A stretch of 37,852 bases of DNA from a virus (taxonomy: Duplodnaviria > Heunggongvirae > Uroviricota > Caudoviricetes): IMG/VR virus record IMGVR_UViG_2531839583_000010. One strand, written 5' to 3'. Shown one piece after another: positions 1,132 through 29,023 of this stretch (its first letter is position 1; every line of letters starts with the position of its first letter). Made by a program: the position numbers and the translations under genes. Below the pieces are notes generated by a model. That model was not told where the DNA came from. It saw nothing but the letters and a program-made list of their open reading frames with translations, and did no database searches.

Positions 1132-1503
1132 TCATAAGTACCGATATGATTGCGGGGCCGTTATGTTATCACCTAATGAACTTAGATGAAGCGGTTGATC
1201 ATAGATTTTTAAATTGCCAATTTCTATAGCAAAGGCTTTTTCTTTGCTATGAAAATATGAGTCAAAAAATTGTTTGCTGATACCTGCGTATTGGCTTGTT
1301 TTTTCCCATACAATACTTGGCTTGTCTTCTATAACGTCTGCAATGTCAAATTCAGCAACAACTTTACCGACAGGCATTGTTGAATAAATAACCACAGATT
1401 TTACATCCGGGTTTTTGAAAAGACCTTTCCTGAATTCAAACTTCTTTGTCCCATTAAGGATCTTTTCAACAAATTCAGGTTTTATTGACAATAATACTTT
1501 CAT
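1132..1503 (-). CDS. ASCH-domain (PUA-like fold) protein, cargo gene 3 of the cI-int cassette
   Basis: 123 aa; N-terminus LLSIKPEFVEKILNGTKKFEFRK resembles the ASCH signature (LSIkPeya..Il.GkKt.E.R); overlaps the upstream gene by 29 nt. Homology is recalled, not searched. Confidence 0.6.
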   Translation of the reverse strand: MKVLLSIKPEFVEKILNGTKKFEFRKGLFKNPDVKSVVIYSTMPVGKVVAEFDIADVIEDKPSIVWEKTSQYAGISKQFFDSYFHSKEKAFAIEIGNLKIYDQPLHLSSLGDNITAPQSYRYL

Positions 1504-2554
1504 CTACAGCACCAAGTTTAATTATATCGTCAAATTGCTTATCGGTTAATTTAACAACACCCCAACGGTTTTTAGGATTCAAACCAATTTCTTTAATTAG
1601 TTTAGCACGATTTATTCTTTTAGGTAAAGCTAGATTATATGTAAAACTAATAATGTAAGGGTATCTTCTTGTTTGATAAAATTTTTTCAATTCATTTTCA
1701 GAAAATACACTGTATCGTGCACAATATTGTATGAATTCATTTTCATTATGAAAAGAATCAATATATCTAATATCTTCAACTACACATAATGACGTTGCGA
1801 CAGAACGATAGTATGCTCTGTTCTCTTCGTCACTTGTTCTGTAAATAACTAAGATGTCATGTTTTTTTATTTTTTTTACATCATACATTCTACATATATA
1901 TATTTTTCTAATGCTATTAGCATGAGATACATCCGTGATTATATCTGGAGATTCAGTGACGAGTTTTGAATCAGGAAAAAGTTTTGTATGAAATTCAGGG
2001 TGTATTGACAATAGGTATTTATTCTCATTATTTTTATTATTTATATATGGGTAATCAGAAAGTATATCACCCGTGAGGTGATTTCTATTCATCTCTCTTA
2101 CTAAAACATTTTCTATACCATTTGCGGTTTTTTTTGTGCCATGAAGAATGAATCCATAAAGTTTGAATAGTTTTATTAGATATTCATGTTTTTCAAATAC
2201 AGTAACGTAAATATCATTAACTCTTTCTTTTAAAGCATGATCAAATATTTTTTTTAAAAAACGTTGCCCTCGTAATGTTTTTTTTGTATTGAACTTAAAG
2301 GTTCCAATTTTCAAATGTTTATGATTGATAATTGATGGGGTGACATCAGTTATTTTACCGAATTCAATTTTTAAATACATAAAACCATCAATGGTATTAT
2401 CGTCATTATAAAGCACATATGCTTTTTCTTCTGGATTAAGACTTTTTCTGTTGAACCATTCAATAAAACCGTGTTCATAGTCATTCTTTAACGAATCAAA
2501 AAATGTATCGTCAAAATTTACTTGACTGAATGGAATAAGTTTTAAATTTTCCAT
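1475..2554 (-). CDS. Hypothetical two-domain protein; C-terminal half has an ASCH-like motif, N-terminal half has weak GNAT-like features
   Basis: 359-aa ORF in an AT-rich island; C-terminal segment LLSIHPEFHTKLF...ILVIYRTSDEE echoes the neighbouring ASCH start; the N-terminal RGQRFLKKIFDHAL stretch only loosely resembles GNAT motif A. Confidence 0.5.
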   Translation of the reverse strand: MENLKLIPFSQVNFDDTFFDSLKNDYEHGFIEWFNRKSLNPEEKAYVLYNDDNTIDGFMYLKIEFGKITDVTPSIINHKHLKIGTFKFNTKKTLRGQRFLKKIFDHALKERVNDIYVTVFEKHEYLIKLFKLYGFILHGTKKTANGIENVLVREMNRNHLTGDILSDYPYINNKNNENKYLLSIHPEFHTKLFPDSKLVTESPDIITDVSHANSIRKIYICRMYDVKKIKKHDILVIYRTSDEENRAYYRSVATSLCVVEDIRYIDSFHNENEFIQYCARYSVFSENELKKFYQTRRYPYIISFTYNLALPKRINRAKLIKEIGLNPKNRWGVVKLTDKQFDDIIKLGAVDESIIVNKT

Positions 2555-2581
2555 GTTGCCCCCTGTTTAATTATTGTGAGA

Positions 2582-3646
2582 TTATTTTCTATAGGTCCAA
2601 AGGTGAATAATTATATATATTACAATAGCTAAAATTGCCCCACCGATATAATATGTGCTTGTCGGTATAAATTTAAGAATAAAAGCAAAGGCAGCACCAT
2701 ATATCAAGTACGCAAAAATTTTACTGAATTTGGTTTTCGTGTTTTTAAACTTCACAACAACAGAGAAGTCATTTAGTGTTGTTTCATTATCATTAACAAT
2801 CTTCCAATGGTAAATCATAGGGTCGTGATCACCAAATGAAATACCTTTTTCGAAATATTTTGTCCATGTTTCAGACTCTAATATTCTACATCCTTTATAA
2901 CTTGAGCCAGATGCTGAACATTCATCAACAATATCTCTTATTATAAACAAATGTATTTTTAAAGGTGTGCAAGCGGCGCTCGCCAGAGTTGTAGCAATTT
3001 CTGAAGGTAGGTTTCTTTGTTCATTGATCCTAAAATCAATAATATCAGAACGCTCAATATTACTTTTGAGAAAGAGATCTTTTGGATAAAATGTTTTTAC
3101 TAAAACACCTATATCTTCATTGTTGAGTTTAACTCGAAATCTTAAATAATGTGGAGCATCCTCTGACGATAGGCAATCTTTTAGCTTGAAAACAATGAAG
3201 GTGCCATTATGTATTTTAGTTACCTTAACCCTACGATCAAGTTCGCCACCACTAAAGGTCAGATTTGTATTAACAACTAAATCACCTTTATTCGCAAGTT
3301 CTAATTTTGAATGTCTGACGTCTACTGTTTTTGTATTAATAAGATATTCATTAAAAACAGCTGTTACGAGATCTCGGCTTGACTCGAGATTTTTACTAAG
3401 ATCAGAAAAAAAACAATTTTCCTTCTCAAATGGTAAAAATATGCATATTGCACCATGATTTGCAATGGTGTCGTCATCAGGTTTTTTAAACGTAATACCA
3501 AAATCTAAATAACAAAATTTATGAGCACTTATATTCCAAAAATTTATGTGTAACTCATTAATAAAATTATTGCGTTCAGGGTTATAGGTCGAACTCGAAT
3601 TGCTCCTATAATCCCTACATCCCCAGATAGCAAAACTTTTTGACAT
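2582..3646 (-). CDS. Hypothetical protein with a large soluble N-domain and two C-terminal transmembrane helices
   Basis: 354-aa ORF; C-terminus IFAYLIYGAAFAFILKFI...YYIGGAILAIVIYIIIHLW has two hydrophobic helices; no recognised catalytic motif. Confidence 0.5.
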   Translation of the reverse strand: MSKSFAIWGCRDYRSNSSSTYNPERNNFINELHINFWNISAHKFCYLDFGITFKKPDDDTIANHGAICIFLPFEKENCFFSDLSKNLESSRDLVTAVFNEYLINTKTVDVRHSKLELANKGDLVVNTNLTFSGGELDRRVKVTKIHNGTFIVFKLKDCLSSEDAPHYLRFRVKLNNEDIGVLVKTFYPKDLFLKSNIERSDIIDFRINEQRNLPSEIATTLASAACTPLKIHLFIIRDIVDECSASGSSYKGCRILESETWTKYFEKGISFGDHDPMIYHWKIVNDNETTLNDFSVVVKFKNTKTKFSKIFAYLIYGAAFAFILKFIPTSTYYIGGAILAIVIYIIIHLWTYRK

Positions 3647-3674: not shown

Positions 3675-4328
3675 TTATACATCTGATAATACTTTTCGAT
3701 AGCATCTTGCGATGGGTTTTATATCGTCAAGCATACATTCAAAAAATGTTTGACCACTGCTAACTTTTACTCTCCCAACTGGAATTCTAACCAGATCACG
3801 AGAACTTATTTTTCCTTCTATTTCAACAATCCATTTCCCATCAATAATTTCATCAAATTTCATGTCTACCAGATAATTATCTGATAACTCAGAAAATATT
3901 GCGGGGGTAATCATATCCACCGGGAGCAAATCTTTATCAAAAATGTAAGAGGAATCACCTTGTAGCTTGCCATCTACTATTTTGTAATGTGGCAATTTTA
4001 TACCTTCTTTCGTTGCTTTAAGACGAGGAGAACCAACACCAGACACTAACCATTCGAGAGACACTCCCGTTTCTAGAGCGCACTGAATTACCCAATCAGC
4101 TGGAAAAATATCACGCATATAGCGCGTTGCCATGGTGCTCTTAGAAACACCTAAATGATCACAGAGAGCCTGACGGGTACCGAACCCATATGCTTCAACT
4201 AAACGTTCTATAGCTTTCTTACCGCCGCTATTGAAATCCACAAGTCCTCCAAAGAAATCCAAAACTCGTTGACAGATTCCAAAAGCGATCTTAAAGTTGA
4301 ACCAGAAGTGTTCTTTTGGAGCCTTCAC
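3675..4328 (-). CDS. cI: CI-type immunity repressor (phage 186 family, HTH)
   Basis: HTH region ERLVEAYGFGTRQALCDHLGVSKSTMATRY...CALETGVSLEWLVSGVG resembles the 186 CI N-domain; divergent from apl/cII as in 186. The true start may be internal (ORF is about 25 aa longer than expected). Confidence 0.7.
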   Translation of the reverse strand: MKAPKEHFWFNFKIAFGICQRVLDFFGGLVDFNSGGKKAIERLVEAYGFGTRQALCDHLGVSKSTMATRYMRDIFPADWVIQCALETGVSLEWLVSGVGSPRLKATKEGIKLPHYKIVDGKLQGDSSYIFDKDLLPVDMITPAIFSELSDNYLVDMKFDEIIDGKWIVEIEGKISSRDLVRIPVGRVKVSSGQTFFECMLDDIKPIARCYRKVLSDV

Positions 4329-7065: not shown

Positions 7066-9480
7066 ATGAGTCATGACGATATGAGCAACTCTAGCGGCTT
7101 TAACGAGGCCGCTACAGCATTTTCATGGAACGGCCCGAAAAAGGCCATTAACCCTTATCTGGACCCGGCGGAAGTTGCGCCGGAGTCTGCACTTTTAAAC
7201 CTGATCACTCTGTACGCTGCCGATAATGAGCAGGAACAGCTGCGCCGCGATGCACTGAGTGAGCAGGTCTGGGAGCGTTATTTCTTTAATGAATCTCGTG
7301 ATCCTGTCCAGCGCGAAATGGAGCAGGATAAGCTCATTAGCCGGGCAAAGCTGGCGCATGAACAGCAGCGTTTTAACCCGGACATGGTCATTCTGGCGGA
7401 CGTCAGCGCCCAGCCCACCCATATTAGCAAGCCGCTGATGCAACGTATCGAATACTTCAGCAGCCTGGGCAGGCCAAAGGCTTATTCCCGCTATTTGCGT
7501 GAGACGATTAAGCCATGTCTGGAGCGACTGGATTGTGTACGTGACAGTCAGCTGTCTGCTTCTTTCCGTTTTATGGCAAGCCATCAAGGGCTGGAGGGCC
7601 TGCTGATCCTGCCTGAAATGAGTCAGGACCAGGTGAAACGCCTGTCCACCCTGGTAGCTGCGCATATGAGCATGTGCCTTGATGCAGCTTGTGGCGATTT
7701 GTATGCCACCGATGACGTTAAGCCAGAAGAAATCCGCAAGACATGGGAAAAGGTGGCGGCGGAAACCCTGCGTCTGGATGTCATCCCACCTGCGTTTGAG
7801 CAACTCCGTCGGAAAAGAAACCGCCGTAAACCCGTACCCTATGAACTCATTCCGGGTTCGCTGGCGCGTATGTTGTGCGCCGACTGGTGGTATCGGAAAT
7901 TATGGAAGATGCGTTGCGAATGGCGGGAAGAGCAGTTGCGTGCTGTCTGCCTGGTCAGCAAAAAAGCATCTCCCTATGTCAGCTATGAAGCCGTGATGCA
8001 TAAACGTGAGCAGCGCCGTAAGTCGCTGGAGTTTTTCCGTTCTCATGAACTGGTGAACGAAGACGGCGACACGCTGGACATGGAGGATGTGGTAAACGCC
8101 AGCAGCAGCAACCCTGCGCATCGCCGCAATGAGATGATGGCCTGTGTTAAAGGTCTGGAGCTTATCGCGGAAATGCGCGGTGACTGCGCCGTTTTCTATA
8201 CTATCACCTGTCCGTCACGTTTCCATTCCACGCTCAACAACGGCAGACCCAACCCGACCTGGACAAATGCGACGGTAAGACAAAGCAGCGATTATCTGGT
8301 CGGCATGTTTGCTGCATTTCGTAAGGCAATGCACAAAACCGGGTTGCGCTGGTATGGCGTGCGGGTGGCTGAGCCGCACCATGACGGTACTGTGCACTGG
8401 CATCTCATGTGCTTCATGCGTAAAAAAGACCGCCGCGCCATCACTGCATTACTGCGTAAGTTTGCCATCCGTGTAGACCGCGAGGAGCTGGGCAACAACA
8501 CGGGGCCACGCTTTAAGTCTGAGCTGATTAACCCGCGCAAAGGAACACCGACAAGCTACATCGCGAAATACATCAGTAAGAACATTGACGGGCGTGGTCT
8601 GGCTGGCGAGATCAGCAAGGAAACGGGTAAATCCCTGCGTGATAACGCCGAATACGTTAATGCCTGGGCGTCTCTGCATCGTGTTCAGCAGTTCCGCTTC
8701 TTTGGTATTCCGGGACGTCAGGCTTACCGTGAACTTCGCTTGCTGGCTGGTCAGGCGGCAAGGCAACAGGGGGACAAAAAAGCAGGTGCGCTGATACTGG
8801 ATGACCCGCGCCTTGATGCCATCCTGGCTGCTGCTGATGCTGGTTGTTTTGCCACCTACATCATGAAGCAGGGCGGCGTACTGGTTCCCCGTAAATATCA
8901 CCTTATCAGAACCGCTTATGAAATCAACGAAGAGCCGACCGCCTATGGCGATCACGGCATTCGTATTTATGGCATCTGGTCACCCATTGCAGAGGGCAAG
9001 ATCTGCACTCATGCAGTGAAGTGGAAAATGGTTCGTAAGGCCGTTGACGTTCAGGAGGCGGTAGCCGACCAGGGCGCTTGCGCCCCTTGGACTCGTGGCA
9101 ATAACTGTCCCCTTGCTGAAAATTTGTACCAACAAGGGAAAGACAAATCAGCTGATGGGGATACCAGAACGGATATCACCCGTATGGATGACAAGGAGTT
9201 GCACGATTACCTGCACAGTATGAACAAAAAAGAACGCCGGGAACTGGCTGCAAGGTTACGCCTGGTGAAACCGAAACGGCGTAGAGACTACAAACAGCGA
9301 ATTACAGACCATCAACGACAGCAGCTCGTCTATGAACTGAAGTCCAGAGGATTTGATGGCAGCGAGAAAGAGGTCGATTTACTCCTTCGCGGCGGCAGTA
9401 TTCCGTCAGGAGCAGGCCTGCGTATCTTCTATCGGAACCAGCGTTTGCAGGAAGATGATAAGTGGCGGGATCTGTATTAA
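7066..9480 (+). CDS. A: Replication initiation protein A (rolling-circle nickase, P2 gpA-like)
   Basis: 804-aa ORF downstream of the early genes, in the position and size of P2 gene A. Confidence 0.8.
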
Positions 9481-10067: not shown

Positions 10068-10572
10068 GAAACGTTGCTGGCGTCTGAACTTGCTTCTGGC
10101 GTCAGCAAGGTTGAATAACGAGCTGTGCGAGGCGTTAGCCATCTGATCAAAAGACATCAAATATCATATTGTATATCGTGGTCAAACGCTGGAAACAATC
10201 ATTCCCGGTCAGAGGGGCTTCTTTCAATGTCTAAAAGAGTGAGATAGAGGATACAGGATGGGAAGAGCTTATGATGATTGTTCTTGGATTGACTTGGAAT
10301 ATTTGATGTCCATTATCTAATGGACTTGGTCTTGATAGTTATCACGAAAGAGGAAGCCAACGTCATGTATTTGAAGAGTATCTCTTACCTTTTGATTAAT
10401 TATTGTCCAAGTTTTTCAAAAGCTTCTTATCTGGCGGTCGATACATGATTTACTGTTGGATATGGTATTTAAAATTAATCTTTACACTGTGGTATATGCA
10501 GAATAGGATATTATCAATACAATCAAACTGTTTTCATACGGTTGTTAATATTGCAATGTTATAGGTAATGTC

Positions 10573-11691
10573 ATGTATCTTTTCAAGTATTACCGTCCGG
10601 ACTTCTTCTTCGAGAAAGCTATTCGTTATAATGAATTATATTTTTCCGCTCCTGCGCAATTGAATGATCCTAATGATCTCAATATAGATTATCGTTTTGA
10701 TAATAAATTGAAATTATGAGATATTTTATTGCGTTCTCCTTGCGATAAATCCTATAAAAATTTGAGTCACATATTAGATTTGAGTAATTTGAAGATACAT
10801 AAGGGATTGAATCGTATTTTTAGAGGAAAAAAAATAAAAAGTAGCATTGAGTCATTAGATAGCCTGTTTGACTCACACGTTGATGAGATACGTAAGATCA
10901 TAAATGATGGTTTACTACCTATCAATGTGATTAATTCCGCTATTTATGGGAATATTCCTGAACCACGCCAATTTTTGGTCTCACTTTGCGAGAACAGTAT
11001 CAAAGAAAGGTTGTATAGGAAAATAGTTCCTGCAGTATTCAGTGTGTCATTTTCAGCTAATGCGTTAGATCGTATGATGTGGGCGCATTATGCTGCAGGC
11101 TTTAGTGGTTGTGTTGTGATTTATGAAACGCAGGATTTTAATATTAATGGCGTACCACATCCTGGAATGAAGTTAAGAGAAAATTTATTTTCATCAGATA
11201 AAATTAATTTTCCAGTTAAGCCAATAAAATATAGTAATCAAGCTAAAGAGGTTTCACTTCTAGACCCAAGCGCAAATGTTGCAGAGTTATTTTTAACTAA
11301 AAATAGATTTTGGAGATATGAAGCTGAATATCGAATGTTTATTCCAGAGGCAAATGCAGGAATAGGGAGTGAGCGGCATGTTCAAAGACACGTAAATCGA
11401 AATATTGGACATGTTTTTCATCATGATGCTAATGTTGTTAAAGGGATCATTTTTGGTCCTAGAATGTGTGAAATGAAAAAAGAAAGCATATGGAATTGTA
11501 TCAAGTCAAATATGGAGAATTCAAATTCAACAATATGTTATTTTTTTGACTCTGAGTTATCAGCATCAGGAAAGATTACTATTTCAAAAGGGCAACGAGC
11601 GGAAAAAATGAAAAATTTCCCTTTGTTCAGGAACAAGTTAAGTCAGACGGAAATGGCTAAAGTTTTGAAGGAAATTGGCATTACGAACTAA
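10573..11691 (+). pseudogene. DUF2971-like gene interrupted by an in-frame TGA (10717-10719)
   Basis: ATG 10573 encodes YLFKYYRPDFFFEKAIRYNELYFSAPAQLNDPND (DUF2971 N-motif as recalled); a TGA follows; the same frame continues to 11691 and contains MWAHYAAGFSGCVVIYE and RFWRYEAEYR (DUF2971 core motifs). The track ORF 10729-11691 starts at a TTG. Confidence 0.55.
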
Positions 11692-11756
11692 CCTAACAAC
11701 AGTGCATGCCTATGCTGCCTGAATTTGCATGACCGTTTGAGGATCGTTTTTGCTAA

Positions 11757-11781
11757 GGCCCGCCAGAACTGGCGGGCTTTT
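11757..11781 (+). terminator. Rho-independent terminator candidate
   Basis: ggcccgccag-aa-ctggcgggc followed by tttt; GC stem plus T-run downstream of the DUF2971-like gene. Confidence 0.6.
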
Positions 11782-11826
11782 GCGTGGATCAGGCACCTGC
11801 ATGAAAACCACTACACAAAGCGGGCA

Positions 11827-11845
11827 GGCGTGGCGGGGATACGAG
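11827..11845. other. Putative cos (cohesive end) site, ggcgtggcggggatacgag
   Basis: The first 13 nt match the recalled P2/186 cohesive end (GGCG[A/T]GGCGGGGA...); it sits in a short GC-rich island between two AT-rich cargo genes. Assigned from memory of the P2/186 cos sequences. Confidence 0.4.
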
Positions 11846-11978
11846 CGCGCGTTATGACAAATAGATGATTAGCCTGATTTATTTACAGCTGTATAAATGA
11901 TCACCTTGTAATTAGGTAAGTAATGTCTTCTATTATCATTGATTTGATAGGATTAATCTGTTTTTTGAGGATTAGAGG

Positions 11979-14315
11979 ATGATTGAAGAGGTAGTTATTG
12001 ACAAGGTAGGCTCATATAATGGCCCTACGCAGCTTTTACATGGACTTTCTAAATTTAACTATTTATATGGAGCTAATGGTGCAGGTAAAACAACTATAAG
12101 TAAAATTATTAATGACCCTGAACAATATCCAACATGTCCGATTAAATGGAAAAATAATATATCTTTAATAAGCTACGTATATAATAAAGATTTTGTTGAA
12201 AGAAATTTTAGTCAAGATAAAATTAAAGGTGTATTTACCCTTGGTAGCGATCTTAAGGAGGATGAAGAGAAACTAATATCTCTTAAAGAAGAAAAAAATA
12301 AGCTAATGGAATCTATTATAGCAAAGGAAAAGTTAATAGATGGTGGTGATAATGAATTAGGCGTTATTAAAAAAATCGAAGACCATGAAAAATCTTTTAA
12401 AGATTCATGTTGGAAGCAAAAAGTAAAACATGACAATGTGTTCTCAAAGGCTTTTGAGGGATTAAGGAATAGTAGTGAAAAATTTAAAGCCAGAGTGTTG
12501 GCTGAGTATGAAAATAATACATCAGAAGTTTGCTCAATAGCAGAGTTAATTGAGAAAGCAAAAATTGTTTTTTCTACTGAATTGACATCACATGTATCAA
12601 TTACAATTCCATCCTTCAATGGGATAGATGATATTTTGAGTAGGGAAGTTTGGAGTGAGCGTATCCTAGGGAAAAAAGACGTTAGTGTTTCAGACTTAAT
12701 TACAATGCTCAATAACAGTGATTGGGTTAAGGAGGGTTTAACATATTTCAGTAAATCTAATCCCAAGTGCCCATTCTGCCAGCAGGATGTAAATGATAAT
12801 ATATTTGATAATCTTTCATCATATTTTGATAAAACATATGAGTTAAAAAAAAGAGAAATCGATGCATTGGTTTTACAATATGAATATCAACTTAATAATA
12901 TCTTGAAGGCGATAGATGATATAAGGGCGATTAAATCTCCATTCATAAATTATGAAGTGTTTGAGGATAAGGCTAAGATAGTATTATCTGAATTAAACAA
13001 GAATTTTGAATTGGCAAAAAATAAACGCAATTTTTTAAGTGAATCAGTTCATTTTAGTGACTTAAGTGAAGTTGTTGATGATTTTATTTCTTTTTTGAAT
13101 GATTCAAATCTATTGATAGATAATAATAACAAAATACATAGTAATAGAAAGGTAGAGGCTAGTAATCTTTCTAAGCAGATATGGGCATATATCGTAAAGG
13201 TGGAGTTAAAGTCTGAAATAACTTCTTACCGTAGCAAATCTGATAAGTTTAATAGGACGTTACAAGGACTTAAATCTGGGATAGAAGAAGACAAAAAGAA
13301 GTTAATGTTAAATACTTCGGCTATTGAGGCAATTGAGTCTAATAAAACCAGTACTCTTCCAACTATTACAAAAATTAACAAGATTCTGGACTCTTATGGC
13401 TTCAAAAATTTTTACTTAAAACCCTCCGAAGATAAAAAGCATTATATGATAGTGAGAGATAGTGGAGATAATGCTCGTACAACCCTTAGTGAGGGAGAAA
13501 AGACATTTATCACTTTTTTGTACTTTTATAGCCTTGTTAGAGGGAGTGATAATGCATCAGGTGTTTTAGATGATCGTGTTGTAGTATTTGATGATCCAAT
13601 TTCAAGTTTAGATAGTGATATTCTGTTTATTGTAAGTTCGTTGATTAAAGATTTAATGGAGGATGTTCGTAAGGATGAAGGAAATATTAAGCAAATTATA
13701 TTCCTTACTCATAATATTTATTTTCATAAAGAGTTGACTTTTAATACCAAAAGATCCGGTAATCAAGCAATGAAAGAGGAGACTTTTTGGATTGTAAGGA
13801 AAAAAGGGAAGGTTTCATATCTTGAAAAGTGCGAATCAAACCCAATAAAAACGTCTTATGATTTGCTCTGGTGCGAATTGAGAAGAACAGACATTAATAA
13901 TAATACTATACAAAATACAATGCGAAGGATTTTGGAGAATTACTTTAAGATATTAGGTGGGATGGATATTAGGAAGCTTGAGTGTCATTTTTATGGTGAT
14001 GAAAAAATCATATTTAAATCTTTAGTGTCATGGATTAATGATGGTTCCCATTTTGCAGGTGATGATCTTTATATGAATTTAGATACGGAGTCTGTGCAAA
14101 AATATTTAATTGTTTTTCAGAAGATATTTGAATGTAGTGAGCATACTGCCCATTACAAAATGATGATGGGTGAGTTTTATAAACCGTTAAATGAGTCACT
14201 TCATCTACAAGATGAGTTTGATATAGATGATAGTGCGAATGATGAGTATGCTTCGTCAAAAATTGAGATAAAAGATGGAATAAACACATCTCTACATAGC
14301 AACACATATTTGTAA
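11979..14315 (+). CDS. RloC-like ABC/AAA_13-type ATPase with coiled-coil CxxC hook and C-terminal HEPN-like (R-x4-H) domain; candidate anticodon-nuclease-type defense protein
   Basis: Walker A GANGAGKTT (aa 31-39, nt 12069-12095); CPFC (aa 264-267, nt 12768-12779) inside a K/E-rich predicted coiled coil; LSEGEK signature (aa 503-508); Walker B/D-loop VVVFDDPISSLD (aa 534-545); RKLECH (aa 665-670, nt 13971-13988). AT-rich. Confidence 0.6.
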   Translation: MIEEVVIDKVGSYNGPTQLLHGLSKFNYLYGANGAGKTTISKIINDPEQYPTCPIKWKNNISLISYVYNKDFVERNFSQDKIKGVFTLGSDLKEDEEKLISLKEEKNKLMESIIAKEKLIDGGDNELGVIKKIEDHEKSFKDSCWKQKVKHDNVFSKAFEGLRNSSEKFKARVLAEYENNTSEVCSIAELIEKAKIVFSTELTSHVSITIPSFNGIDDILSREVWSERILGKKDVSVSDLITMLNNSDWVKEGLTYFSKSNPKCPFCQQDVNDNIFDNLSSYFDKTYELKKREIDALVLQYEYQLNNILKAIDDIRAIKSPFINYEVFEDKAKIVLSELNKNFELAKNKRNFLSESVHFSDLSEVVDDFISFLNDSNLLIDNNNKIHSNRKVEASNLSKQIWAYIVKVELKSEITSYRSKSDKFNRTLQGLKSGIEEDKKKLMLNTSAIEAIESNKTSTLPTITKINKILDSYGFKNFYLKPSEDKKHYMIVRDSGDNARTTLSEGEKTFITFLYFYSLVRGSDNASGVLDDRVVVFDDPISSLDSDILFIVSSLIKDLMEDVRKDEGNIKQIIFLTHNIYFHKELTFNTKRSGNQAMKEETFWIVRKKGKVSYLEKCESNPIKTSYDLLWCELRRTDINNNTIQNTMRRILENYFKILGGMDIRKLECHFYGDEKIIFKSLVSWINDGSHFAGDDLYMNLDTESVQKYLIVFQKIFECSEHTAHYKMMMGEFYKPLNESLHLQDEFDIDDSANDEYASSKIEIKDGINTSLHSNTYL

Positions 14316-14326
14316 TTTTATTACAA

Positions 14327-14356
14327 TTGCCAGTAGCAACAATACGGTACTGGCAA
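14327..14356. terminator. Hairpin between convergent ATPase gene and Q (ttgccagta-N12-tactggcaa)
   Basis: Perfect 9-bp inverted repeat with a 12-nt loop in the 49-bp gap between convergent genes; AT-rich stem, so strength is uncertain. Confidence 0.35.
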
Positions 14357-14364
14357 CTAATATT

Positions 14365-15396
14365 TTAGTTAAGCTCATATGGAGAAAATTCTATAAGTTT
14401 TTCCCCGAGCCATGCATTAATTTCTCTAAATCGTTTTTGCAAAGGAATTAATTCATTTATCACAAAAACCTTACTAGCCTTCTCCACATCCCCAAACCCC
14501 CCGACATTATTAGGCATAATCCCCATCATTTGCGGTGGAACGCGGTGTGCCGCCATCATGTCATCGCGACTAACATTTTTGATATTCAGAAACTCATCCT
14601 TCGCTGCGACTTCTGATAACGGGATAATCTGAAGCCCGTCCTTTTTGCCGTTAGGTGAGTACATAAACAGGTTGCGGAAGTTGCCCGGCCCTTTGGCGCT
14701 TTTCATCGCATTGCGGAGGTTGTTCACATCCTCCTGGTTTTGCGCGGCATCGGTCATGTACATGATAAAGCCCGCATGACTGCCGTTAATGTAATACTTG
14801 CGACGGAACAGCGTGGCGGACTCGTTGAGCAGGGCTGACGGAATGGCAGAAAGATAACCGGGCAGGCCGTAGATCTCCTGATTAATATCCGGTTCCATCA
14901 GATGAAAAATGCTGCCTTTCGTGAACTGATACGGCTGGGGTGTCATACCGTATTGCACAAACCAGTAGGTATCCAGGTCTAATCCGCGTCGGGTGTATTT
15001 TGCCAGCGCAGGTTCAAGGGCGATCACTTCACCGAAGCGGTTCGTGCGTTTCTCCAGATAGGCGTTGCCAAATACCAGATAGTCCTGCACAAAACGCGAA
15101 AAAGCCTGCTGGCTGAGCAGAGGATGAGGGATATAGGTACTGGTCAGAATGTTGCACTTTACTGCAATCGGGGAACTGTGATGCACGGCAGCGCGGAAGG
15201 TGCGCGCCAGTCCGTCAAAGCTGACGGGCGGCTCATACCAACGGTCCATCTGTACGCATTCCACATAGTCCAGTAATTCTCGGCGGTCCAGAACAGGAAC
15301 GGGATCGCCGAAGCTGAATGCTTCGGCTGAAGTTTGGTTTTTATGCTGGATCTGATTCGTCGCCGCAGTGCGGTTTTTCTTATTCTTTCCCATCAA
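14365..15396 (-). CDS. Q: Portal protein (P2 gpQ-like)
   Basis: 343 aa (P2 Q is 344 aa); adjacent to and co-oriented with the terminase large subunit. Confidence 0.9.
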   Translation of the reverse strand: MMGKNKKNRTAATNQIQHKNQTSAEAFSFGDPVPVLDRRELLDYVECVQMDRWYEPPVSFDGLARTFRAAVHHSSPIAVKCNILTSTYIPHPLLSQQAFSRFVQDYLVFGNAYLEKRTNRFGEVIALEPALAKYTRRGLDLDTYWFVQYGMTPQPYQFTKGSIFHLMEPDINQEIYGLPGYLSAIPSALLNESATLFRRKYYINGSHAGFIMYMTDAAQNQEDVNNLRNAMKSAKGPGNFRNLFMYSPNGKKDGLQIIPLSEVAAKDEFLNIKNVSRDDMMAAHRVPPQMMGIMPNNVGGFGDVEKASKVFVINELIPLQKRFREINAWLGEKLIEFSPYELN

Positions 15397-25229: not shown

Positions 25230-27331
25230 GCACAAAATTTTATACCCTGCTGACGGATATTGGCGCGGCGAAACTTGCCAGCGCCGCCGCGCTCGGTGTG
25301 CCGCTAAAAATTACCCATATGGCGGTCGGCGATGGCGGCGGAGTATTGCCAACGCCAGACTCAAAGCAGACTGCACTGGTAAATGAGAAACGCCGGGCTG
25401 CGCTGAATATGCTCTATATCGACCCACAGAACAGCAGCCAGATTATTGCTGAACAGGTGATCCCTGAAAACGAGGGCGGTTGGTGGATACGTGAAGTGGG
25501 CCTGTTTGATGAATCCGGGGCATTGATTGCCGTGGGAAACTGCCCGGAAAGCTATAAGCCGCAACTGGCTGAAGGCAGCGGGCGCACCCAGACCGTGCGC
25601 ATGGTGCTGATTACCAGCAGCACGGACAATATCACCCTGAAAATCGACCCTGCTGTAGTACTGGCAACTCGCAAGTATGTGGATGACAAAATATCAGAGC
25701 ACGAACAGTCACGACGTCACCCGGACGCCTCGCTGACCGCAAAAGGTTTTACTCAGTTAAGCAGTGCGACCAACAGTGAATCCGAAATACTGGCCGCAAC
25801 ACCGAAGGCTGTGAAGGCTGCATATGATCTTGCAGCAGGTAAAGCATCCGCCAGTCACACACACCCGTGGAATCAGATAACAGGTGTGCCTGCAGCCTCG
25901 CTGACGGTAAAAGGAATTGTGCAACTTAGTAGCGCCACTAACAGCACGTCAGAAACGCAGGCTGCCACACCAAAGGCAGTGAAGGCGGCATATGACCTTG
26001 CAGCAGGTAAGGCACCTGTCAGTCACACGCACCCGTGGAGCCAGATAACGGATGTGCCTGCAGCTTCACTGACGGTAAAAGGCACCGTGCAACTCAGTAG
26101 CGCCACCAATAGCACTTCTGAAACGCTGGCCGCAACACCGAAAGCGGTGAAGTCTGCCTATGACAATGCTGAAAAACGTCTTCAGAAAGATCAGAACGGC
26201 GCGGATATTCCTGATAAAAGATTATTCCTGCGCAATATTGGAGCAACAAATTCAACAACCATGTCTTTTAGTGGTGGTACAGGATGGTTCAGGCTGGCAA
26301 CTGTAACCATGCCACAGGCCAGTTCCGTGGTTTACATAAGTCTGATTGGTGGTGCCGGATATAATGTTAACTCCCCTATGCAGGCTGGTATATCTGAACT
26401 TGTTCTTCGTGCGGGGAATGGAAATCCAAAAGGTCTTACTGGTGCGTTATGGCGACGGACATCGGTTGGATTTACTAATTTTGCATGGGTGAATACATCC
26501 GGTGATACCTATGATGTTTATGTTGAAATAGGTAATTACGCCACAGGTGTTAATATTCAGTGGGATTATACCAGTAACGCCAGCGTAACGATTCATACAT
26601 CACCAACTTATACAGCGAATAAACCAACAGGCCTGACAGATGGAACTGTATATGTAATTTACAGTTCACATATTAAACCTACTGCTGCTGACCTTGGCTT
26701 GAGCGATGCAAGTGGATACGTGGGACGCTTGGTGAATACCCGGGTTTTCACGTCATCAGGTACGTACACCCCGACGCCAGGAACAAAACGGATCAGGGTC
26801 ACAATAACGGGCGGCGGTGGCGGAGGGGGCGGCTGCAAGGCTACATCCAATAATGAAACGTTTTTCGGTGCTGGCGGTGGGGCCGGTGGAACAATAATTT
26901 CAATAATGACCCCGACACAGAATAGTTATCCAGTCACTATCGGCGCAGGTGGGGCCGGTGGTGTTAGTGCGACGAACGGCACCAGGGGCGGGAATAGCGT
27001 ATTCGCATCGTTAATTGCTCCTGGTGGCGAAGGTGGCGGGAAAGTGGGTGTTACAAACACAAACGGCGGTAACGGAGGTGTGCCGAGTACTGGCGATATC
27101 CGCATCACTGGTGGAGATGGAGGCGACGGTCAGTCCGGAAATATCAGCGTCAGCGGTGAAGGCGGAACATCGCACTGGGGCGGCGGTGGACGTGCAGGCG
27201 CTGGCGGTGGTGTTATCGGTAAAGCATATGGTTCAGGCGGAGGTGGCGCATACGATGCCGGTTATAGCGGAACCAGTATGACGGGCGGGAAAGGCGCTTC
27301 AGGGATTTGTATTATCGAGGAGTTTGCATAA
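25226..27331 (+). CDS. H: Tail fibre protein H with internal tandem repeats and a glycine-rich C-terminal domain
   Basis: 701 aa; N-terminus MSTKFYTLLTDIGAAKLA typical of P2 H; three repeats of ...ATPKAVKAAYDLAAGKA..SHTHPW.QIT.VPAASLTVKG..QLSSATNS.SE; C-terminal 170 aa rich in GG/GGG motifs. Confidence 0.85.
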   Translation: MSTKFYTLLTDIGAAKLASAAALGVPLKITHMAVGDGGGVLPTPDSKQTALVNEKRRAALNMLYIDPQNSSQIIAEQVIPENEGGWWIREVGLFDESGALIAVGNCPESYKPQLAEGSGRTQTVRMVLITSSTDNITLKIDPAVVLATRKYVDDKISEHEQSRRHPDASLTAKGFTQLSSATNSESEILAATPKAVKAAYDLAAGKASASHTHPWNQITGVPAASLTVKGIVQLSSATNSTSETQAATPKAVKAAYDLAAGKAPVSHTHPWSQITDVPAASLTVKGTVQLSSATNSTSETLAATPKAVKSAYDNAEKRLQKDQNGADIPDKRLFLRNIGATNSTTMSFSGGTGWFRLATVTMPQASSVVYISLIGGAGYNVNSPMQAGISELVLRAGNGNPKGLTGALWRRTSVGFTNFAWVNTSGDTYDVYVEIGNYATGVNIQWDYTSNASVTIHTSPTYTANKPTGLTDGTVYVIYSSHIKPTAADLGLSDASGYVGRLVNTRVFTSSGTYTPTPGTKRIRVTITGGGGGGGGCKATSNNETFFGAGGGAGGTIISIMTPTQNSYPVTIGAGGAGGVSATNGTRGGNSVFASLIAPGGEGGGKVGVTNTNGGNGGVPSTGDIRITGGDGGDGQSGNISVSGEGGTSHWGGGGRAGAGGGVIGKAYGSGGGGAYDAGYSGTSMTGGKGASGICIIEEFA
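25727..26165 (+). repeat. Intragenic tandem repeat in H, about 2.6 copies of a 168-nt (56-aa) unit
   Basis: ASLT.KG..QLSSATNS motif recurs at aa 168, 224 and 280; the nucleotide repeats are near-identical by eye. Confidence 0.8.
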
Positions 27332-27744
27332 TGAATACGTCATATGCAGTTATTGAAAATGGGATGGTTGTGAATGTCATTGTCTGGGATGGCGAGGCTG
27401 AATTCACAGTGCCGGATAATCAGCAGCTCATTAATATTTCTGATATCAGTGAGCAGCCCGGAATCGGCTGGGTGTATTCAGACGGGGGATTTACTGCGCC
27501 ACCCACTCCGGAACGTTCTCATGATGAACTGGTAGCTGACGCTGAACAGAAAAAACAGTCGCTGTTAGACGCAGCAATGGCCAATATCAGCGTGATTCAG
27601 TTAAAGCTGCAGGCCGGGCGCAAACTGACGCAAGAGGAAACTACCCGACTTAACGTTGTGCTGGATTATATCGAGGCTGTGACGGCAACAAATACCAGCA
27701 CCGCACCTGATATTATTTGGCCTGTTTTCCCTGCAAGCAGATAA
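27331..27744 (+). CDS. G: Tail fibre assembly chaperone (P2 gpG-like)
   Basis: ATG 27331 overlaps the H stop (TAATG); 137 aa; synteny. Confidence 0.7.
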   Translation: MNTSYAVIENGMVVNVIVWDGEAEFTVPDNQQLINISDISEQPGIGWVYSDGGFTAPPTPERSHDELVADAEQKKQSLLDAAMANISVIQLKLQAGRKLTQEETTRLNVVLDYIEAVTATNTSTAPDIIWPVFPASR

Positions 27745-27756
27745 ATACCGTCATTT

Positions 27757-27774
27757 TGTGTGAATAACGGTACA
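27757..27774. promoter_or_regulatory. Candidate Ogr-dependent late promoter element TGT-N12-ACA (FI operon)
   Basis: tgtgtgaataacggtaca, about 77-94 nt upstream of the FI start codon, in the G-FI gap. Confidence 0.45.
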
Positions 27775-27850
27775 ACTGCGCTTAGCTGCTTGTCAGACAC
27801 AATCACTTCAACATAGGGCGAAGCCTAATCCAATCAGGAGGTTCGCCACT

Positions 27851-29023
27851 ATGGCTCAGGATTACCACCACGGAGTGCGCGTTGTTGAAGTCAACGAAGG
27901 CACTCGATCCATTACCACGGTGAGCACCGCCATCGTGGGCATGGTCTGCACGGGCGATGATGCCGATGCAAAAATGTTCCCTCTTAATAAACCCGTGCTG
28001 ATCACTGATGTGCTTACTGCCAGCGGTAAGGCGGGTGAATCCGGTACGCTGGCCCGTTCGCTGGATGCCATCGCTGACCAGGCAAAACCCGTGACCGTTG
28101 TTGTGCGTGTGCCGCAGGGTGAAACGGAAGAAGAAACCACGACCAATATCATCGGCGCAGTGACTGCTGAAGGTAAAAAAACTGGTATGAAAGCCCTGTT
28201 ATCTGCCCAGTCACAGCTCGGTGTTAAACCGCGCATTCTCGGCGTGCCGGGGCACGATAATAAAGCCGTTGCTACTGAGTTGCTGGGCGTGGCGCAAAGC
28301 CTGCGTGGGTTTGCTTACCTGTCAGCGTATGGCTGCAAGACGGTGCAGGAGGCGATCACTTACCGTGAAAACTTCAGTCAGCGTGAAGGGATGCTGATTT
28401 GGCCTGACTTTACTGGCTGGGACACGGTGCTGAATGCCGACGCAACGGCATATGCCACCGCCCGTGCGCTTGGTCTGCGTGCCAAAATTGATGAGCAGAC
28501 AGGGTGGCACAAAAGCCTGTCCAACGTGGGCGTGAACGGTGTCACCGGAATTTCTGCTGATGTGTTCTGGGATCTGCAGGACCCGGCAACTGATGCGGGA
28601 CTGCTTAACCAGAACGATGTTACCACACTTATCCGCAAAGACGGCTTTCGCTTCTGGGGTTCCCGCTGCCTGAGTGATGACCCACTCTTTGCCTTCGAAA
28701 ACTACACCCGCACGGCGCAGGTGCTGATGGACACGATGGCAGAAGCGCCAATGTGGGCGGTCGACAAACCGCTGAATCCGTCGCTGGCCCGCGACATTAT
28801 CGAAGGTATCCGCGCCAAAATGCGCAGCCTGATCAGTCAGGGCTATCTCATTGGTGGCGATTGCTGGCTGGATGAGTCGGTGAACGACAAAGACACTCTG
28901 AAAGCTGGAAAACTCACCATCGACTACGACTACACACCAGTGCCGCCACTTGAAAACCTGATGCTGCGTCAGCGCATCACCGATCAGTACCTGGTGAATT
29001 TCTCCAGCCAGGTCAGCGCGTAA
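27851..29023 (+). CDS. FI: Tail sheath protein (P2 gpFI-like)
   Basis: 390 aa (P2 FI is 396 aa); GGAGG Shine-Dalgarno; synteny. Confidence 0.9.

Follow-up and report, generated by a model that had tools for sequence, protein, structure and literature searches.

A putative RloC-family anticodon nuclease gene as single-gene cargo between cos and Q in the hotspot of a 186-type (P2-like) prophage

The nuclease of RloC proteins is marked by the motif Arg-X3-Glu-X36-52-His, often with a Ser directly before the His (PMC2610378). In the Geobacillus protein GkaRloC (804 aa), R692, E696 and H737 are each needed for anticodon nuclease (ACNase) activity and toxicity; mutants in this triad are inactive, and a zinc-hook mutant is hyperactive (PMC2610378). 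The GkaRloC nuclease needs both ATP hydrolysis and DNA, linear DNA serving far better than circular DNA, and mutations in the hook bypass this control (PMC3458546). Inducers of DNA double-strand breaks activate the Acinetobacter protein AbaRloC in its native host, where tRNA-Glu and tRNA-Gln are transiently cut (PMC3874168). Here we describe an RloC-like gene at positions 11979-14315 of a viral (Caudoviricetes) DNA record of 37,852 nucleotides, IMG/VR IMGVR_UViG_2531839583_000010, which as a whole is called the window. With a probability of roughly 65%, we consider the gene to be an RloC-family single-gene cargo of a 186-type (P2-like) prophage, set at the cos-Q edge of its defence hotspot; the gene product would act as a DNA-end-responsive anticodon nuclease and abort foreign infection.

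The RloC-like gene encodes, in this order, a Rad50-like ABC ATPase, a coiled-coil/zinc-hook insert that splits it, a C-terminal domain of the anticodon-nuclease type and an acidic tail. At the base composition of the gene, a stop-free run of this length has a probability of ~6e-33. The Pfam profile AAA_13 was matched over profile positions 2-713 of 713 (E = 2e-163), and the PADLOC profile PDC-S06 (PDLC04890) over profile positions 1-726 of 732 and protein residues 1-734 (E = 1.6e-266); PDC-S06 is PADLOC's class for a single-gene phage defence candidate. The PADLOC model of PrrC was also matched (E = 5e-11), over residues 460-704, a match driven mostly by the C-lobe of the ATPase. A large protein search returned 675 homologues, and the Joint Genome Institute (JGI) labels the ones at 43-45% identity "wobble nucleotide-excising tRNase"; tBLASTn found 26%-identical genes in Streptococcus prophages that are annotated as "translation-disabling ACNase". 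NCBIfam held nothing specific for the protein, and the sequence search for relatives of solved structure found none. The full-length AlphaFold2 (AF2) model has a mean predicted local distance difference test score (pLDDT) of 80, and its best matches among solved structures in Foldseek were to Rad50 (7zr1_C, E = 1.5e-7), followed by condensin, Lamassu LmuB, PARIS AriA and ATPase chains of retron complexes.

The nearest RloC listed in the literature is orthologue #51 of an earlier catalogue, E. coli APEC O1 YP_852004, a protein of 738 aa whose neighbours are given as "phage replication initiation, capsid" (Table S1 of PMC2610378). This AAA ATPase (YP_852004/WP_000423308) is located between gpA and the portal gene of a P2 prophage. 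BLASTP aligned it with the window protein at 27% identity over 761 columns (E = 5.7e-47), and the Walker A motif, CPFCQ, LSEGEKT, DDPISSL, LTHN, MR.ILE.YF (MRNILEYYF) and GSH were all in register. On these sequence features, the window protein is a member of the RloC family with the COG4694/AAA_13 architecture. The initial annotation, made from the letters alone, had read an RloC/PrrC-type family and architecture, a reading with which AAA_13, PDC-S06 and the APEC O1 alignment agree. An Old-type nuclease, the classical ATPase of the P2 hotspot, was also considered and rejected, as the PADLOC matches included no Old model.

Conservation was estimated from an alignment of 119 homologues at 41-99% identity. 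The features of the ATPase head and its insert are as follows.

11979-14315, plus strand: the RloC-family gene, 778 aa (open reading frame call, AAA_13 and PDC-S06 matches, 675 homologues)
12069-12092, plus strand: Walker A GANGAGKT, residues 31-38, with K37 (G31, G36, K37 and T38 in 119 of 119)
12255-13343, plus strand: helical insert of coiled-coil type, residues 93-455, splitting the ATPase head (AF2 model)
12768-12779, plus strand: zinc-hook motif C264-P-F-C267, near the midpoint of the insert (C264 and C267 in 119 of 119)
13485-13502, plus strand: ABC signature LSEGEK, residues 503-508 (S504, E505 and G506 in 119 of 119)
13578-13598, plus strand: Walker B and start of the D-loop, VVVFDDP, residues 534-540 (D538, D539 and P540 in 119 of 119)
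13710-13712, plus strand: switch (linchpin) histidine H578 in LTHN (119 of 119)

The protein thus presents a complete set of ABC ATPase motifs with invariant key residues. Walker A, the signature and Walker B had been read from the sequence alone, and all five motifs named at that time lie at the residues given for them, including K37 and CPFC at 264-267. The insert is composed of 12% K and 10% E, and the AF2 model places its long helices at residues 93-121, 129-155, 285-318, 325-351, 363-388, 390-409 and 411-454. Together with the two invariant cysteines, these observations bear out the earlier description of a K/E-rich helical insert with CPFC at its centre. CPFC is the sole CxxC of the protein. 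Judged by its sequence, C264/C267 is a hook motif of the RloC type, and zinc binding is predicted for it.

The putative nuclease lies behind the ATPase head.

13851-14183, plus strand: all-helical C-terminal domain, approximately residues 625-735, presumed anticodon nuclease (pLDDT 79.8 in the AF2 model of the C-domain)
13923-13937, plus strand: R649-R650-I-L-E653, the Arg-X3-Glu part of the RloC/PrrC triad (R649, R650 and E653 in 119 of 119)
14046-14051, plus strand: S690-H691, supplying the triad's (Ser)His with 37 residues between it and E653 (119 of 119)
13971-13988, plus strand: RKLECH, R665-H670, an unconserved chance match with no part in the mechanism

The spacing of the triad, X37, falls inside the published range of X36-52, and a Ser precedes the His (compare PMC2610378). 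When the protein was shuffled, the observed count of the pattern R...E.{36,52}SH was reached in 0.16% of shuffles, whereas one R-x4-H arose in 35% of them. Among the homologues, 94 have D and 11 have R at position 665, and 70 have M and 14 have H at position 670. RKLECH is the sole Rx4-6H in the protein, and no Arg is found 4-6 residues ahead of the invariant H691 (SWINDGSH). The initial annotation had proposed R665/H670 as a HEPN-like active site and overlooked the invariant R649, E653, S690 and H691. As R-x3-E...S-H is invariant and R665/H670 is variable, that annotation was right about the family and wrong about the active site. The nuclease triad of the RloC-like protein is R649/E653/H691, with catalysis predicted from the conserved motif; the mutations of R665 and H670 that had been suggested would probably hit bystander residues.

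Searches with the C-domain alone returned little. No similarity to PrrC or HEPN profiles was detected, residues 590-740 gave no match to the PADLOC PrrC model, and the AF2 model of the C-domain had no significant fold match in the PDB. In the full-length AF2 model, the S690-H691 loop is of low confidence. A profile search of the C-domain against 1.84 billion representatives yielded 1216 clusters. Among the best 150 of these, the domain is C-terminal in full-length proteins of ~690-790 aa, and the shorter ones look like fragments; since the best 150 share one architecture and none is of the PrrC type, the search is uninformative on the link to PrrC. The profile check proposed at the outset therefore came out in part: ABC/AAA_13 matched, the PrrC model matched over residues 460-704 only, and HEPN profiles left the C-domain unmatched. 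Because neither a HEPN profile nor a solved fold matched the C-domain, its HEPN membership is unconfirmed, and the label rests on the literature (PMC3710099).

These results bear on a different account of the protein, an RloC-family ATPase whose C-domain does not cut anticodons but cleaves mRNA or rRNA, or serves as a binding or regulatory module, so that any defence would act through another lesion. The lack of PrrC and HEPN similarity would fit this account, as would the low identity to the APEC O1 orthologue, the standing of PDC-S06 as an uncharacterised candidate class and the match to PHROG 2801, a family of unknown function. The R-x3-E...S-H motif, in turn, is invariant at the published spacing and aligns with the motif of the APEC O1 orthologue, and in GkaRloC both ACNase activity and toxicity are lost when any one of the three corresponding residues is mutated (PMC2610378). 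We regard a C-domain without anticodon-cutting activity as unlikely, yet plausible enough to be kept in view.

Because every residue on which the experiments with GkaRloC and AbaRloC rely is kept, the same self-contained switch is proposed for the window protein; its biochemical steps, trigger, tRNA target and anti-phage phenotype are ones that we infer from the Geobacillus and Acinetobacter proteins. The protein would dimerise through its Rad50-like ABC-ATPase heads. In the lysogen, the coiled-coil arms would fold back and the C264xxC267 hooks bind zinc, leaving the C-terminal nuclease silent. Linear DNA or DNA breaks, arising from the infection of another phage or from genotoxic stress, would elicit DNA-dependent ATP hydrolysis (K37, D538/D539, H578) that frees the switch. 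The C-domain (R649, E653, H691) would then cut tRNA anticodon loops, and the wobble nucleotide would probably be excised. Translation would halt and the infection abort, by which the lysogen population and the prophage would be protected.

The position of the gene was examined by aligning the window with related phages.

11827-11845, plus strand: putative 19-nt cohesive-end site GGCGTGGCGGGGATACGAG (alignment with the annotated P2 cosR/cosL junction)
11701-11851, unstranded: conserved cos block of 151 bp, common to Fels-2, 500465-1 and many 186/PSP3-type phages
11852-14403, unstranded: cos-Q cargo module with a single gene (BLASTN borders against 500465-1, record L003, and Fels-2, record L004)

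The cos site agrees with P2 at 14 of 19 bases, and its flanks are conserved. A scan for the P2 cos consensus with up to three mismatches gave no match; the site is of the 186 type and was found by alignment instead. Within 11680-11990, 87 phage records match only the block at 11701-11851. Phage homology ends at 11851, 6 bases past cos, and resumes at ~14404 within the end of the portal gene Q. GpA spans 7066-9480, cos 11827-11845 and Q 14365-15396 (minus strand), which places the RloC-like gene between cos and Q. Both the earlier placement between cos and the portal gene and the accompanying statement that P2 has no gene there hold, the P2 cosL-Q interval being 168 bp with a terminator only.

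The initial annotation had read the gene as an insertion at the genome end; its position is no oddity. P2-like phages have a published defence hotspot in the cos-proximal gpA-gpQ region (Rousset et al. 2022, PMC9122126), and other phages carry cargo at the same cos-Q site, namely an open reading frame (ORF) for a 565-aa hypothetical protein in Fels-2 (L004, 3218-4915) and a TIR-domain protein with a small ORF in Escherichia phage 500465-1 (L003, 4224-5526). The window shows what is expected of hotspot cargo, a variable AT-rich gene beside cos that is sharply delimited from conserved phage DNA. The RloC-like gene has a GC content of 30.6%, in line with the AT-richness noted earlier; the window as a whole has 49%, and the phage structural genes have 54-60%. 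The APEC O1 orthologue is found on the A-cos side, encoded by the opposite strand and in the old/tin position (25932-28148, minus strand, with cos at 28464-28482, in record L014). As the APEC O1 copy is on the A-cos side and the window copy on the cos-Q side, the P2 hotspot consists of two independently exchanging compartments, one on either side of cos, and RloC-family genes occupy either.

The neighbourhood of cos raises the question of whether the protein serves phage DNA metabolism instead, as a Rad50/SbcC-like end-binder that tethers or protects the cohesive ends or aids recombination in the hotspot. Rad50 is the best structural match, the gene abuts cos, and cohesive ends have been speculated to drive hotspot recombination (Rousset et al., PMC9122126). 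This idea is nevertheless very improbable. No Mre11/SbcD partner gene is present, the composition is that of AT-rich cargo, and homologues occur on chromosomes outside phages. The gene is dispensable, because it is absent from P2 and most relatives, and the protein has an extra C-domain with the ACNase triad that is absent from Rad50 and SbcC (PMC2610378).

A search of 5426 complete E. coli genomes found copies of the gene with at least 97.8% nucleotide identity in 21 of them, and all 21 full-length copies are intact; 2 further records match only the first half of the gene. Every copy with a listed context adjoins the portal gene. Upstream of cos, by comparison, the cargo differs among copies, being DUF2971, a KAP NTPase, ComF, DarT-macro (DarTG) or nothing, and in strain 23CRST035 the module at 10140-11700 is absent, with DinI followed directly by cos. 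A 63%-identical orthologue occupies the same cos-Q site in 186-type prophages of Enterobacter hormaechei, with an identical cos core upstream, and in Burkholderia a homologue at 42% identity stands alone on the chromosome. The ratio of nonsynonymous to synonymous substitution rates (dN/dS) between two E. coli alleles is 0.14; of their 16 amino-acid changes, 13 are in the coiled-coil insert, and the conserved motifs are untouched. The RloC-like gene is therefore intact, under purifying selection and independent of its neighbouring gene.

That neighbour, on the far side of cos, is a DUF2971 cargo gene of PADLOC class PDC-S31 (10573-11691, plus strand) with a stop at 10717-10719, where its codon 49 reads TGA in place of TGG in the intact 372-aa WP_000280510 of E. 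coli E2. Unless a restart at TTG 10729 rescues its translation, this neighbour is probably a pseudogene. A two-gene system of DUF2971 and the RloC-like gene was considered and rejected, as the upstream module is absent or replaced where the RloC-like gene stays and carries a stop codon here. Besides the copies on P2-like phages, a paralogue on P4 satellites (WP_001615855, 761 aa) is 51% identical over its full length and lies in the satellite hotspot between psu and int; it is listed as AAA_13 in Table S1 of PMC9122126. P4-like satellites with this paralogue sit at tRNA-Leu (L007, 4514-6799; L008, 4514-8150), and IS3 splits the copy in strain RM10740.

Signals for expression were sought around the gene.

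11755-11783, plus strand: GC-rich hairpin followed by a U-run inside the cos block (-23.4 kcal/mol, z = -3.2)
11967-11971, plus strand: candidate Shine-Dalgarno sequence GAGGA, 7 nt ahead of the ATG (read from the sequence)
14328-14355, unstranded: hairpin separating the RloC-like gene from the convergent Q gene (plus strand -16.7 kcal/mol, z = -4.9; minus strand -16.3 kcal/mol, z = -3.8)

The first hairpin is likely a terminator that shields the RloC-like gene from A-side transcription, and the second is possibly a bidirectional terminator. Inside the gene, an antisense ORF of 184 aa (12212-12766, minus strand) is probably a by-product of composition.

The gene could also be a selfish or decaying passenger, either a toxic ATPase-nuclease maintained by hitch-hiking or addiction, or a gene silent in the lysogen, in both cases with no defence benefit. 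Its rarity (21-23 of 5426 genomes), the lack of a recognisable promoter, the premature stop in the neighbouring DUF2971 gene and the IS3 disruption of one P4-borne paralogue would be consistent with this explanation. The 21 full-length copies are intact, though, with a dN/dS of 0.14 and invariant catalytic-type residues, and the 63%-identical orthologue has been retained at the same site in Enterobacter prophages. A passenger without benefit is thus improbable.

Several points weigh against a DNA-end-responsive anticodon nuclease that aborts foreign infection. The scan for sigma-70 promoters over 11852-11978 gave counts at the level of shuffled sequence and no convincing promoter. The identity of the window protein to the nearest RloC listed in the literature reaches only 27%. 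A toxin activated by DNA ends is carried by a cos phage, whose own ends are made at induction, and it would face the problem of self-activation. The biochemistry of RloC dates from 2008-2013, and its anti-phage role is still a proposal (PMC2610378, PMC3458546), described as "not tested" in PMC12322248; for PDC-S06, a literature search found no experimental validation. A well-delimited single-gene RloC module in a natural E. coli prophage could make this question of defence easy to test.

Beyond the nuclease domain, the protein ends in a tail.

14184-14312, plus strand: disordered acidic tail, residues 736-778, with a clade-specific S-A-N-D motif (pLDDT ~30)

The SAND acidic tail is kept in the P2- and P4-borne enterobacterial clade (homologues P0002-P0020) and absent from ~44%-identical homologues. 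The tails of Enterobacter-type relatives (P0004-P0008) end in D/E-A-P-F, four of them in DDAPF, whereas the last residues of the window protein are NTYL. The DDAPF end of the Enterobacter relatives resembles DDDIPF, the C-terminal tip of the host single-stranded-DNA-binding protein SSB in E. coli. One joint reading, which we consider a long shot, would make the tail a new regulatory module of RloC, a mimic of DNA or of the SSB tip that tunes the nuclease away from the phage's own cos ends. If so, the tail would lie in the Rad50-like DNA groove or interact with SSB-binding proteins, and the nuclease would answer foreign phage DNA ends or phage proteins. The adjacency to cos would then be a functional link to the cohesive ends, beyond a mere hotspot of recombination.

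Elsewhere in the window, a second AT-rich cargo region (1132-3646, minus strand, 27-32% GC) was observed between the integrase (1-1053) and a 186-type CI repressor (3675-4328). It contains an ASCH protein (PDC-M11B), a 359-aa PDC-M11A protein and a 354-aa ORF, the last of which had no match in Pfam or PADLOC.

The finding is otherwise an ordinary one, a known family in a known hotspot. A prophage RloC in the A-Q region of P2 was catalogued in 2008 (PMC2610378, Table S1), prophage-borne ABC-HEPN proteins were discussed in 2013 (PMC3710099), and RloC-like genes appear in the hotspot census of 2022 (PMC9122126). What is new is modest, namely a distinct clade at 27% identity to the catalogued E. 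coli RloC, the cos-Q position, the clade-specific tail and the corrected catalytic residues. In addition to its position and strand, the APEC O1 orthologue differs from the window protein in having no acidic tail. The prophage ABC-HEPN family labelled APECO1_4465 (Anantharaman et al. 2013) is probably this same orthologue. In the hotspot census, AAA_13 "RloC-like" is system #5 with 420 loci (Table S5B of PMC9122126), and AAA_13 does not occur among the tested systems (Table S2 of PMC9122126). System #5 is 25% identical to the window protein over the 399 residues compared, with CPFCQ and Walker A aligned, and 46% identical to the APEC O1 orthologue, and thus belongs to the APEC O1 clade. The P4-satellite paralogue shares with the window protein the SAND acidic tail and the status of cos-proximal cargo, but its tail is shorter and it is borne by the satellite and not by the helper.

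Compared with PrrC, the window protein likewise has an ABC ATPase followed by an ACNase with an R-x3-E...H triad. PrrC, however, is a protein of ~400 aa without a coiled-coil insert and is always found in a type Ic restriction-modification (hsd/prr) locus (PMC3458546), whereas the window protein has 778 aa and a 360-residue insert, and the neighbours of its gene are cos and the portal gene; it is not a PrrC by these features. With Rad50 and SbcC it has in common the ABC head, the antiparallel coiled coil and the CxxC hook. Its arms are much shorter, at ~170-190 residues each, and it differs further in the extra C-terminal nuclease-type domain of ~190 aa and in being a single-gene module with no Mre11/SbcD partner gene.

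The closest likeness is to GkaRloC and AbaRloC, in which the head is split by a coiled-coil/CxxC insert and followed by a C-domain with Arg-X3-Glu-X36-52-(Ser)His. By published residue numbers, K44, C291, D572, R692, E696 and H737 of GkaRloC (804 aa) are collinear with K37, C267, D538, R649, E653 and H691 of the window protein (778 aa) (PMC2610378, PMC3458546). Like RloC, the gene stands alone, without a linked restriction-modification system (PMC2610378, PMC3458546). It differs from RloC in being borne by a prophage and in encoding an acidic tail of 43 residues, which most of the family lacks.

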